Shown here: positions 48,273-50,931 of the stretch, piece by piece | Position numbering within the stretch: the stretch's first letter is position 1 | Layout: each line of letters opens with the position of its first letter | Source of the DNA: Candidatus Omnitrophota bacterium | Lineage (GTDB): Bacteria; Omnitrophota; Gorgyraeia; Duberdicusellales; 4484-171 | NCBI GenBank assembly: GCA_021735655.1 | Contig: JAIPGM010000011.1 | Span: 1-56,791 of the forward strand | DNA: 56,791 nucleotides | Direction: 5' to 3' | Position numbers and translations under genes: made by a program | Notes under the pieces: generated by a model | What the model saw: only the letters and a program-made list of their open reading frames with translations | The model's database searches: none | Told to the model about the DNA's origin: nothing

Positions 48273-49388
48273 ATGAAAAGAGTTAGCGTTTTACATATTT
48301 CTGAGTTTGGTGGTCACAGTAAAGCTGCCCAAAATATCAAGGAAGCCTTTCTTTTCAAAGACCCCCGGATAGACGTTGTAACTTTAAACGGCTTAGGTCA
48401 TTTTTATCCGCGAGGAGAGAAAGTGGTCGACTTTGCCTATATGATGACCATAAAACACTTTCCTTCTGTTTGGGGTAAGGCCTATGATCGCAAGAAAGTC
48501 ATAAAAGCTTTAACCCCTTATCGTAAAATTGTTCACAAAATAACCTTTGGTAAGTTAAACCGTTTGATAAATGAGTCTCGGCCGGATTGTTTTGTTGCTA
48601 CCCAGGCTTTTCCTTGCGGTTTAATTGCTGATTTTAAAAAGAGTAAGGGTTTAAAAATACCCTTAGTTGCCATTGTCACCGATTATCATCCGCATCGTTT
48701 TTGGGTTCATCCTCATGTTGATCGTTATGTTGTAGCTTGTCAAGAAGCACGGAAAGTTTTAATTGGCCAAGGTGTTGTTCCTGAAAAAATAAAGGTATTA
48801 GGGATACCAATCTCGGTTAAGTTTTTAGGTAGTTATCCTAAGGAAGAGATTGCTGATGAGTTAGGGTTTGTAAAAAATTTACCTTCATTATTGATTATGG
48901 GCGGAGGCCTAGGTTTAGGTCCAATACAGTTTATTGCTCAGGAGCTGGATGCTTTAAGTCATGATTTTCAGATTATAGTCATCTGCGGTAAGAATAAGAA
49001 ACTTTACGAATGGTTCTCGAAGAACAAAGGACTTTTCAAGAAGCCAATTTTTACCTTTGGCTATACCCATAAGATATACAAAATAATGGATTTTTCAGAT
49101 ATTATTATTACCAAAGGCGGTGGGATAACTATTTCTGAAAGTTTAGCTAAAGGATTATGTATTATTGTTACTAATCCGATACCCGGTCAAGAAGAGAGAA
49201 ATGTTAACTATTTAAATAACGTTCAGGCAATAACTAAGGCCGATAAGGCAGAGGAGGTTGCTGGAGTTGTCGGCAGGTTCTTTAGTAATCCCAAAGATAT
49301 GTATCGTTTTCGAGAGCGGGCAAAAGAATATTCGTTTATTGATTCTTCTTTGAGGATAGTTGATTTAATTTTGGAGCTAATCAGTTAA
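48273..49388 (+). CDS. GT28-family glycolipid synthase (MGDG synthase/UgtP-like diacylglycerol glycosyltransferase)
   Basis: N-terminal VLHISEFGGHSKAAQNI resembles UgtP/MGDG synthase (ILTA..GNGH). C-terminal GT-B domain (ITKGGGITISES). Confidence 0.7.
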   Translation: MKRVSVLHISEFGGHSKAAQNIKEAFLFKDPRIDVVTLNGLGHFYPRGEKVVDFAYMMTIKHFPSVWGKAYDRKKVIKALTPYRKIVHKITFGKLNRLINESRPDCFVATQAFPCGLIADFKKSKGLKIPLVAIVTDYHPHRFWVHPHVDRYVVACQEARKVLIGQGVVPEKIKVLGIPISVKFLGSYPKEEIADELGFVKNLPSLLIMGGGLGLGPIQFIAQELDALSHDFQIIVICGKNKKLYEWFSKNKGLFKKPIFTFGYTHKIYKIMDFSDIIITKGGGITISESLAKGLCIIVTNPIPGQEERNVNYLNNVQAITKADKAEEVAGVVGRFFSNPKDMYRFRERAKEYSFIDSSLRIVDLILELIS

Positions 49389-50227
49389 TGTATTATCTTT
49401 TTGTTTTCGGAAGCCTGCTAGCCTCAATTTTTCCCCGGAATATTTGTTATTTGTTTGCTAAAATAGTGGCCTTATCTAATTTTTATCTATTCGTTAAAGA
49501 TAAACGAAATATAGATTATAATTTGGGGGCCATCGTTTTTGATCCGAAAGAGAGAAGAAGGCAAGTTAAAAACGTATTCATAAATTTTTCTTACTATTTA
49601 GCTGATTTTTTCCGCTACCCTAAGTTAAATGAAGCCTTTATAAAAAAATACGTAAAAGTTATCGGTTTAGATAATTTAGGTTCGGTTATTGATCAACATA
49701 AGGGGGTAATAGCCCTTACTGCTCATTTAGGAAATTATGAGTTGGCCGGAGCCGTGATTTCGCTTCTAGGGTATCCGGTCTCTGCGGTTGCTCTTCCCCA
49801 TAAAGATAAACGGATAAATAATTTTTTTGATCATCGGCGTAATATGGTAGGGATGCAAGTAATTTCTACTGGTAGTGCTGTGCGCGGTTGCTTCTCAGCG
49901 CTTAAAACTGGAAGGGTATTAGGTCTCTTGGGTGATAAAGATTTTTCTGGGGGTGGTTTAAAGCTCGAGATGTTTTCTCGTCAGGCTAAACTTCCTCGCG
50001 GGGCTGCTTTTTTTGCTTTAAAAACCAATACTCCGATTGTGCCGGTATTTTTCGTTAGAGTCGATAAGTATTTTTATCATCTTATAATTGACAAGCCGAT
50101 TTTTTTAAATAAAGATACTGAAAGTGATGAAGTAACTATAATTAATAAATATATAGCTGTTTTAGAAAAGTACCTAAAACAGTATCCGGGTCAGTGGTAC
50201 ATGTTTGATCGATACTGGCTGGATTAA
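49388..50227 (+). CDS. Lysophospholipid/lipid A-type acyltransferase (LpxL/HtrB/PatA family, PF03279-like)
   Basis: HX4E motif TAHLGNYELAG and the C-terminal PGQWYMFDRYW signature (P.QW.W.HRRW-like). Confidence 0.7.
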   Translation: MYYLFVFGSLLASIFPRNICYLFAKIVALSNFYLFVKDKRNIDYNLGAIVFDPKERRRQVKNVFINFSYYLADFFRYPKLNEAFIKKYVKVIGLDNLGSVIDQHKGVIALTAHLGNYELAGAVISLLGYPVSAVALPHKDKRINNFFDHRRNMVGMQVISTGSAVRGCFSALKTGRVLGLLGDKDFSGGGLKLEMFSRQAKLPRGAAFFALKTNTPIVPVFFVRVDKYFYHLIIDKPIFLNKDTESDEVTIINKYIAVLEKYLKQYPGQWYMFDRYWLD

Positions 50228-50268
50228 GAAAATCTTAAAAATAAAAGTTAGAAGAAATTAGTTGGGCG

Positions 50269-50931
50269 ATGAAGATTTGGGTTGTTATTCCGGCTTACAA
50301 TGAGGTTTTGAGTTTAGAGTCGCTTCTTAATCGGCTGGGCGATAAAAATTTATCTATACTTGTAATTGATGATGGTTCGATTGACGCAACCTATAAGGTA
50401 GCTAAGGCTAAAGCCGATGTCGCCATCAAAAATGAGAAAAATCTTGGGAAAGGATTAGCTTTGAATAAGGCTATTTCTTATCTTTTTGATCATCAAGAGT
50501 TTGACTATCTTATTTTCATGGATGCCGACGGCCAGCACAGTCCGGAGGACATAGACAAGTTTTTCGAAGAAGCCGAGAAGGGTAGTTCTTTCGTCATCGG
50601 CAATCGAATGGTTGAACCTTTGGGTATGCCCTACAATCGGGTCGTTACCAATAAGTTTATGTCCTGGCTTATTTCAAAGATAATTGGTCAGCAGGTTCCC
50701 GATAGCCAGTGTGGCTTTCGAATGATCAAACGTCAGGTTTTAGAGAAGATAGCTATTAAGACTAAAAAGTTTGAAATAGAATCAGAAATCTTAATTAAGG
50801 CGGCGAAACTGGGCTTTGATATAAAAAGCATGCCGATAAAAACTATCTATTTTAAGAACCCGCATAGTAAAATTCGCCCTTTTAGGGATGCGATAAGATT
50901 TATAACCTTTATAGCTAAGGTAGATAAGTGA
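50269..50931 (+). CDS. GT2-family glycosyltransferase (polyprenol-phosphate/DPM1-like)
   Basis: VVIPAYNE N-terminus, DxD (FMDADGQH) and QCGFR motifs. Confidence 0.8.
   Translation: MKIWVVIPAYNEVLSLESLLNRLGDKNLSILVIDDGSIDATYKVAKAKADVAIKNEKNLGKGLALNKAISYLFDHQEFDYLIFMDADGQHSPEDIDKFFEEAEKGSSFVIGNRMVEPLGMPYNRVVTNKFMSWLISKIIGQQVPDSQCGFRMIKRQVLEKIAIKTKKFEIESEILIKAAKLGFDIKSMPIKTIYFKNPHSKIRPFRDAIRFITFIAKVDK

Follow-up and report, generated by a model that had tools for sequence, protein, structure and literature searches.

To our knowledge, the biosynthesis of the phosphatidylinositol mannosides (PIMs) of Actinobacteria is the sole characterised case in which a lipid glycosyltransferase (GT) works together with a PatA-type acyltransferase. 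In the mycobacterial PIM pathway, the GT4 enzyme PimA, of the GT-B type, is accompanied by the acyltransferase PatA (PF03279), the genes being arranged in the pgsA1-patA-pimA operon, and Ppm1, a GT2 enzyme, gives polyprenyl-phosphate mannose; PatA places a palmitoyl chain on the 6-OH of mannose in PIM1/PIM2. In Firmicutes, where the diglucosyl-diacylglycerol synthase UgtP (YpfP) serves the anchor of lipoteichoic acid (LTA), the glycosylation of LTA depends on a GT2 of the CsbB/GtlA type together with the small flippase GtcA. A third arrangement is HexSDF of Clostridioides difficile, composed of HexS, a member of the monogalactosyldiacylglycerol (MGDG)-synthase family, the deacetylase HexD and the MprF-like flippase HexF, for which a modified glycosyl-diradylglycerol was found by lipidomics (PMC10128005). 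The present analysis concerns three adjacent genes on a 56.8-kb stretch of DNA (hereafter, the window), the complete contig of a metagenome-assembled genome (MAG), which encode a GT28 glycosyltransferase, a PF03279 acyltransferase (AT; its sequence is that of MCF7908753.1, from a Candidatus Omnitrophota MAG) and a GT2, collectively referred to as the triad. On balance we favour the view that this module makes an acylated glycoglycerolipid distinct from lipid A and is often extended by a PF06695 membrane protein; the glycolipid would be separate from lipopolysaccharide (LPS) because AT groups with PatA and a different paralogue resides in the lipid A gene cluster.

The three genes form one conserved unit

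An earlier interpretation made from the DNA letters alone (the sequence-only reading) had proposed a UgtP/MGDG-synthase-like GT28 translationally coupled to a PF03279-type acyltransferase and followed by a DPM1-like GT2. All three genes are present and co-oriented on the plus strand (Table 1), the ATG of the first being preceded by an alternative TTG start; the stop and start codons of GT28 and AT overlap in TAATG, and the family assignments, including the two AT motifs HLGNYE (HX4E, aa 113-118) and YPGQWYMFDRYW (aa 266-277), hold up in profile and structure searches. The three open reading frames (ORFs) are real genes and not chance occurrences; for AT, a word-indexed search gave 421 homologues and an exhaustive search 11,687.

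The GT28 protein matches PF06925 (MGDG_synth; 1.6e-25, 90.6 bits vs a gathering threshold of 25) at 169 of 169 profile positions and, with its C-terminal domain, PF04101 (2.1e-10, 41.3 bits vs 22). Its best PDB match is B. subtilis UgtP (9wde, 1e-39), Arabidopsis MGD1 (4wyi) being matched at 1.4e-30, and when aligned to these two structures it retains GGH (aa 14-16), of which the His is presumably the catalytic base, as well as the GGGxGxGP, ITKxGxxT and GQE motifs. Judged by its sequence, GT28 is homologous over its full length to UgtP and MGD1, both of them diacylglycerol glycosyltransferases, which would predict a similar acceptor lipid; against the NCBIfam model for diglucosyl-diacylglycerol synthase it scores 208.6 bits and misses the cutoff of 500. 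An assignment as MurG was rejected, with 37.9 bits vs 250.25 for TIGR01133, no PF03033 domain and a syntenic murG elsewhere in the window, and roles as a MurG paralogue or as a substitute for LpxB or WaaA were ruled out by domain content. The GT2 protein carries PF00535 (6.5e-26, 91.7 bits), and its best curated or solved relatives are polyprenyl-phosphate glycosyltransferases: its PDB matches (7/7) are DPMS (5mlz, 1.1e-16), ArnC or GtrB, and its NCBIfam scores, all under the cutoffs given in brackets, are 104.7 for AglJ (325), 76.7 for PpgS (370) and 53.4 for ArnC (529). It contains no hydrophobic segment and no C-terminal transmembrane (TM) helices, indicating a soluble or peripheral protein.

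To survey conservation, each GTDB species was represented by one genome and scanned with a query alignment narrower than the 49-sequence homologue alignment described below; at least 563 relatives were returned. Neighbourhoods were taken from the best 80, all of which are Omnitrophota MAGs of different assemblies; among these, GT28 lies directly upstream of AT in 74 of the 76 testable cases and GT2 directly downstream in 72/72. With the species-level genome loci and 80 metagenome loci merged into 156 unique loci, GT28 adjoins AT upstream in 123/125 and GT2 adjoins it downstream in 123/124, the lowest identity to the window AT being 34%. In many other loci GT28 and AT likewise overlap or lie only a few bases apart, the median of the 74 gaps measured being ~1 base. 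In the two exceptions (L081 and L082), argS, lplA and an aminotransferase gene are inserted 5' of AT; GT28 is still present 4.5 kb upstream of AT in L082, and no GT28 was found within the ~10 kb examined upstream of AT in L081. At the opposite extreme, P0123 is a GT28::PF03279 fusion encoded by a single 687-aa ORF within triad synteny. GT28, AT and GT2 constitute one conserved unit and probably one functional module. Many MAGs titled 'uncultured Planctomycetia bacterium' or 'uncultured Planctomycetales bacterium' (binchicken assemblies; L019, L021, L022, L027, L032 and others) carry the Omnitrophota-type triad and synteny, and their titles look like placeholders.

It is very improbable that the three genes are merely unrelated neighbours in a long co-directional housekeeping array. 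Such an explanation would suit the window itself, which is filled almost entirely with co-oriented, tightly spaced housekeeping genes and in which promoter and terminator scans returned chance-level results only, and it would suit the unrelated pcm gene, which is often conserved next to the triad as well. The triad, however, survives a complete change of its flanks: the dcw cluster precedes it in 8 of 42 loci only, and in L017 an intact triad, at 34-38% identity, follows the rpoA-rplQ region instead. Moreover, adjacency stays at ~98-99% over the whole range of AT identity, one lineage has GT28 and AT as a single protein, and all three products are membrane-lipid glycoconjugate enzymes.

The acyltransferase and the lipid A question

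AT matches PF03279 (2e-35, 122.9 bits vs a cutoff of 22.3) over profile positions 17-294 of 295. The residues H113, E118, R151, D183, G205 and W270 are invariant among 49 homologues, and H113, E118 and D183 are also invariant in a separate set of 15. His113 is the catalytic His of the HX4E motif, and Asp183 aligns with Glu200 of PatA, in which the H126/E200 pair was found essential by mutagenesis (PMC4792965). A PDB search matched AT to PatA at 1e-16 vs 1.3e-4 for LpxM, and the AlphaFold2 (AF2) model of AT (pLDDT 91.6), compared by Foldseek, fitted PatA with an rmsd of 2.4-2.7 Å and TMt of 0.81-0.87, vs 4.6-4.7 Å and 0.67 for LpxM, with a probability of 1.00 throughout. Against NCBIfam, the window AT misses the cutoff of the PatA equivalog (NF005919, 105.5 bits vs 209) and those of all the LpxL/LpxM models (PRK08419, 112 vs 248; TIGR02207, 55.5 vs 297.8; TIGR02208, 41.2 vs 336); P0180, a divergent triad AT, reaches 144.3 bits with the PatA model vs 103 with the best LpxL model. 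Hydropathy of the AT N-terminus does not discriminate between membrane anchors of the PatA and LpxL kinds. The triad ATs are at present labelled 'KDO2-lipid IV(A) lauroyltransferase' or 'lysophospholipid acyltransferase'.

A second class of PF03279 proteins was found with P0203, the AT of an LPS-core context (L015), as the query. In Omnitrophota its members are ~650 aa long and consist of PF03279 fused to a PF06258 domain of the ELM1/GtrOC1 type; at least 558 matches to PF03279::ELM1 were obtained, and every named one is from Omnitrophota. In L099 such a fusion stands in the order waaA - lpxK - PF03279::ELM1 - GT4/GT9 - GT4 - GT9 x3 ... PfkB - kdsB, and the ELM1-fused P0298 scores 166 bits with the best LpxL model and 97 with that of PatA. 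It is probably the ELM1-fused protein that carries out the late acylation of lipid A in this phylum. These proteins are annotated as 'mitochondrial fission ELM1 family protein'. Outside Omnitrophota, relatives of the second class occur as fusions with LpxK (P0352), GmhB of the HAD type (P0283-P0284, P0295-P0297, P0301-P0303, P0313), GT9 (P0331, P0369, P0383) and LptA/LptC (P0318, P0334, P0355, P0367) domains, which makes an unusually rich set of LPS-context PF03279 fusions, metagenomic in origin, with two named examples, from Nitrospirae and Geobacter.

The two classes are separated in a neighbour-joining (NJ) tree built with 300 bootstraps from 218 columns of the catalytic core, for which triad ATs were used only if their gene context had been verified. 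In this tree the triad ATs are monophyletic with 96% and the ELM1-fused ATs with 92% support. The split between the triad ATs, PatA and the PIM-operon-type tandem ATs P0122 and P0185 on the one side and all LPS-context ATs with E. coli LpxL and LpxM on the other received a bootstrap value of 94%, and the same split was recovered at 92.5% in a 41-sequence version of the tree. P0122 is the tandem acyltransferase of L014 (JGI 3300038380, Ga0434945_000139; taxon unknown), a locus with the order Ino1 - AT::AT - PHP_C - GT4 - CDP-alcohol phosphatidyltransferase, and its 336 bits with the PatA model, exceeding the cutoff of 209, are summed over the two AT domains. This PIM-like operon suggests acyl-PIM-type lipids made with two acyltransferase domains in one protein. 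P0122 was rejected as close kin of the window AT, since its 270 bits in the search of representatives are likewise a two-domain sum and each domain is ~30-34% identical to the window AT. In contrast to L014, no inositol-phosphate synthase, CDP-alcohol phosphatidyltransferase or GT4 gene was found beside the triad in the annotated loci.

The sequence-only reading had argued for membrane glycolipid modification rather than lipid A synthesis from the absence of nearby lpx genes. That absence was confirmed by tblastn over the window with E. coli LpxA, LpxB, LpxD, LpxL, LpxM and WaaA and Omnitrophota-type WaaA, LpxK and KdsB as queries, for which AT was the sole match, and it extends to the ±10 kb around the triad in 173 loci (2.09 Mb), none of which (0/173) contains WaaA, LpxK, LpxA/B/D, KdsB or ELM1. 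As an argument it is weak by itself, because Omnitrophota have LPS genes. Published accounts mention LpxC-FabZ fusions, heptosyltransferase II and an O-antigen ligase, and the literature on Omnitrophota LPS or lipids yielded incidental statements only. What supports the glycolipid interpretation computationally is the conserved unit, the fusion, the PatA-side tree and fold, and the existence of the second PF03279 class, with the substrates as predictions.

Several observations weigh on the other side. With LPS genes encoded in the phylum, lipid A substrates would be available to AT. The window AT scores marginally higher with an epsilonproteobacterial LpxL model than with the PatA model (112.0 vs 105.5 bits, both far under the cutoffs), and its core identity is ~21% to PatA and ~30% to the ELM1-fused ATs. 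The grouping with PatA comes from a simple NJ tree with a long PatA branch, and the GT28::AT fusion is limited to one lineage, on 2 contigs. GT9 genes of LPS-core heptosyltransferases abut the triad in 2/173 loci, L182 and L003. In L182, GT9a-b-c, orthologues of those in L099 (49%, 36% and 49% identity), are placed directly upstream of GT28-AT-GT2-pcm; as the contig is shared, LPS-core genes of the L099 type and the triad coexist in at least one genome, an indirect sign that the two AT classes may also occur together. An AT that was the only LpxL/M homologue alongside a full lpx pathway had been named in the sequence-only reading as a sign of ordinary lipid A late acylation; at the phylum level it is not the only one, PF03279::ELM1 being abundant, and at the level of a single genome the evidence is the indirect sign from L182. 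Finally, GT28 enzymes need not use diacylglycerol: a monohexosyl lipid has been proposed as the acceptor of HexS (PMC10128005), and that of MurG is lipid I.

On such grounds, AT might be regarded as a second, LpxM-like lipid A late acyltransferase acting after the ELM1-fused LpxL-type enzyme, with GT28 and GT2 modifying LPS, that is, GT28 adding a sugar onto lipid A or the core, GT2 making an undecaprenyl-phosphate sugar in the manner of ArnC to decorate lipid A in the periplasm, and the PF06695 protein behaving like ArnE/F. PF03279 is the family of LpxL and LpxM, the lpxL and lpxM genes of E. coli are likewise unlinked, and ArnC is among the solved relatives of GT2. We nevertheless judge this explanation improbable and largely answered by the evidence above. 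AT is coupled not to an LPS enzyme but to a homologue of diacylglycerol glycosyltransferases, with which it forms a single protein in one lineage; the true LPS-context ATs (LpxK, GmhB, GT9, LptC and ELM1 fusions) fall across the 94% bipartition; lpx, waa and kds genes are missing from the flanks of every one of the 173 loci; and the preference of P0180 for the PatA model (144 vs 103 bits) agrees with the better fit of the AT model to PatA than to LpxM.

A lipid-glycoside pathway with an acceptor other than diacylglycerol, such as a polyprenyl-linked intermediate, a hopanoid or carotenoid alcohol, or a phospholipid headgroup (phosphatidylinositol, for instance), is likewise rather unlikely, if less so. 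Family homology leaves the acceptor free, the triad proteins miss all equivalog cutoffs, and PF03279 members acylate diverse glycolipids, an example being VexE, the enzyme of the Vi-antigen anchor (PMC9597891). The N-terminal domain of GT28, however, is PF06925 of the diacylglycerol-using MGD1/UgtP type, covered over its full length, and not the PF03033 of MurG, and a true murG is found elsewhere in the window. Carotenoid, hopanoid, Ino1 and CDP-alcohol phosphatidyltransferase genes were not seen beside the triad in the Pfam-annotated loci, the flanks of the remaining triad loci having been screened against reference proteins only. In green sulfur bacteria, an LpxL-like acyltransferase is involved in the formation of the CruC/CruD glycoside esters; a carotenoid-glycoside ester pathway of this kind was rejected for the triad, near which no carotenoid genes were seen in the Pfam-annotated loci.

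Proposed pathway and surrounding genes

In the pathway that we infer for an acylated glycoglycerolipid separate from LPS, GT28 would transfer a hexose from a UDP-sugar to diacylglycerol or a closely related lipid at the cytoplasmic face of the inner membrane. AT would then use a His113/Asp183 charge relay to esterify an acyl chain, donated by acyl-CoA or acyl-ACP, at a position on the sugar headgroup, and the product would be a tri-acylated glycolipid, analogous to the conversion of PIM1/2 to Ac1PIM. GT2 would charge polyprenyl phosphate with a sugar, and the PF06695 protein may translocate either the GT2 carrier or the glycolipid for decoration in the periplasm. In its most far-reaching form, the proposal is a PIM-like or LTA-anchor-like tri-acylated glycoglycerolipid, possibly lengthened in the periplasm by sugars from polyprenyl-phosphate donors to give a lipoglycan, in the diderm, LPS-encoding Omnitrophota, with AT as the first bacterial enzyme identified as O-acylating the sugar of a glycosyl-diacylglycerol and as the representative of a new PatA-related subfamily partnered with GT28 and not GT4; we offer it tentatively, as a possibility that is more doubtful than the module's general function.

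The genes downstream bear on the extent of the unit. The stop codon of GT2 is overlapped by the GTG start of pcm, which in turn overlaps the PF06695 gene. The next gene after GT2 is pcm in 68/97 loci and PF06695 in 17/97, PF06695 lying within 1.3 kb in 60/97. The PF06695 protein scores 135.5 bits vs a gathering threshold of 30.7 over the full profile and has multiple hydrophobic segments; PF06695 belongs to the DedA superfamily as one of its branches (Okawa et al., bioRxiv 10.1101/2020.12.18.423352). As a partner of the triad the protein may serve as a flippase or scramblase, acting on the GT2 product or on the glycolipid, and the unit probably extends beyond GT2 as far as this gene. As for pcm, which is missing from triad loci such as L003 and L017, it is probably a frequent syntenic passenger outside the lipid chemistry. 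This protein-repair gene is wedged between GT2 and PF06695 with overlapping codons on both sides and has no evident link to lipid synthesis.

Upstream of the triad, the window contains plsX-fabHDGF, leuCDB and a complete dcw cluster ending with ftsQ and a highly divergent ftsA-like gene, then a 640-aa protein without a family match and an HD_5 protein. The gene of the 640-aa protein, for which neither Pfam nor NCBIfam gave a match, runs into the start of that of the 445-aa HD_5/HDIG protein, which resembles weakly the response regulators with cyclic di-GMP (c-di-GMP) phosphodiesterase activity; in some lineages the pair separates the dcw cluster from the triad, in others (L007 and L009) it is missing, and GT28 is preceded by a shorter HD_5 gene in 22/42 loci. 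The FtsA-like protein (381 aa) has no Pfam match and scores 35.5 bits (6e-9) with TIGR01174 vs a cutoff of 175.85, with PDB 1e4f at E=0.02, and neither in the window nor in the related loci inspected is its gene followed by ftsZ. Within the dcw cluster, murG and murC are separated by an inserted Peptidase_MA_2 gene (270 aa), as they also are in other Omnitrophota loci (L001, L003, L007 and L009). A single sizeable gene lies on the minus strand and encodes a type IV pilin-like protein with the N-terminal methylation motif PF07963; the rest of the window is co-oriented and its GC skew is positive all along. The window contains no tRNA gene and gave no Rfam match.

Table 1. Coordinates of the triad, its motifs and other features, in the window unless another contig or locus is named
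Feature	Position	Strand	Remarks
GT28 (MGDG-synthase/UgtP type)	48273-49388 (alternative TTG start 48270)	+	372 aa; PF06925 + PF04101
GT28 GGH	48309-48317	+	
GT28 GGGLGLGP	48900-48923	+	sugar-nucleotide motif
GT28 ITKGGGIT	49107-49130	+	sugar-nucleotide motif
GT28 PGQEERN	49182-49202	+	sugar-nucleotide motif
TAATG stop/start overlap, GT28/AT	49385-49389	+	sequence reading
PF03279 AT, PatA-like clade	49388-50227	+	279 aa; Pfam, PDB, model, trees
AT HLGNYE	49724-49741	+	HX4E
AT GDKD	49931-49942	+	includes Asp183
AT C-terminal YPGQWYMFDRYW	50183-50218	+	
GT2, polyprenyl-phosphate glycosyltransferase type	50269-50931	+	220 aa; PF00535
GT2 DDGS	50368-50379	+	sequence reading
GT2 DADGQH	50521-50538	+	sequence reading
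pcm, protein-L-isoaspartate O-methyltransferase	50928-51578	+	PF01135 5.5e-64; NCBIfam 244 bits, cutoff 188 exceeded
PF06695 'small multidrug export' membrane protein, DedA superfamily	51568-52077	+	PF06695 1.8e-39
Type IV pilin-like gene	20017-20637	-	
murG	37913-38959		
Peptidase_MA_2 gene	38928-39740		
ftsQ and FtsA-like gene (dcw end)	42949-44934		
640-aa protein and HD_5/HDIG protein	44960-48209		
PF03279::ELM1 fusion in L099	10001-11953		GCA_947085655.1, CAMTXH010000006.1; family P0298-P0517
PIM-like operon in L014	8982-14446		
GT9 genes abutting the triad in L182	440-3595		
GT9 gene abutting the triad in L003	12239-13318		

Comparison with known systems

Omnitrophota are a large and widespread phylum of very small cells, nearly all of them uncultured, and we know of nothing reported on their membrane lipids; the occurrence of the triad in essentially every sampled genome predicts a major envelope lipid. 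Sugar-acylated glycosyl-diacylglycerols have been reported in several bacteria, and we are aware of no acyltransferase assigned to their formation; the triad ATs would offer a candidate gene family for this step. Correction of the annotations would also follow, as the triad ATs are labelled as a lipid A enzyme and the better candidate for lipid A late acylation is labelled as an ELM1 family protein. The most fitting description of the locus is that of a PIM-like combination of GT and PatA-type acyltransferase in which GT28 has taken the central place; it is conserved phylum-wide, and the chemistry itself is familiar. If this is true, the reach of such chemistry is widened to a Gram-negative-type phylum by way of a UgtP/MGD1-type enzyme.

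The triad resembles the PIM pathway in that a GT-B lipid glycosyltransferase of the cytoplasmic face is combined in an operon with an AT of the PatA clade, which shares the catalytic His and the block-3 carboxylate (PMC4792965; here H113/D183), in that the AT groups with PatA in both tree and fold, and in that a DPM1-type GT2 takes the place of Ppm1. It differs in that the glycosyltransferase is GT28 and not the GT4 enzyme PimA, all three triad genes are contiguous, the PatA cutoff is missed (105.5 vs 209), and the host belongs to a diderm LPS-encoding phylum and not to Actinobacteria. The likeness to the UgtP systems of Firmicutes lies in GT28, for which UgtP is the best match, and in the general outline shared with UgtP + CsbB/GtcA, namely a glycolipid glycosyltransferase, a polyprenyl-phosphate GT2 and a small multi-pass membrane protein. 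However, a predicted sugar-acylating enzyme is linked here and none is known to be linked to ugtP there, the cutoff of the corresponding model is missed (208.6 vs 500), the small protein is PF06695 of the DedA superfamily and not of the GtrA family, and no LTA synthase is in evidence. With HexSDF, the triad has in common an operon combining GT28, a headgroup-modifying enzyme and a putative flippase; it is distinguished by a predicted O-acylation (PF03279) instead of N-deacetylation, by the additional GT2, by a different flippase family and by a different phylum.

With LpxL and LpxM, AT shares PF03279, the fold and the catalytic His, but it misses their cutoffs and lies outside lpx, waa or kds surroundings, and the waaA-lpxK cluster of the phylum has its own ELM1-fused paralogue. 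The last group to be compared consists of polyprenyl-phosphate sugar synthases with their small membrane partners, namely ArnC with ArnE/F, GtrB with GtrA, and PpgS with Rv3632. The relatives of the triad GT2 are these very synthases, and a small multi-pass membrane protein follows it in most loci. Unlike ArnC, GtrB and PfDPMS, the GT2 (220 aa) is without C-terminal TM helices, as are DPM1 and PpgS, and unlike ArnE/F, GtrA and Rv3632, its partner is a PF06695 protein of the DedA superfamily.

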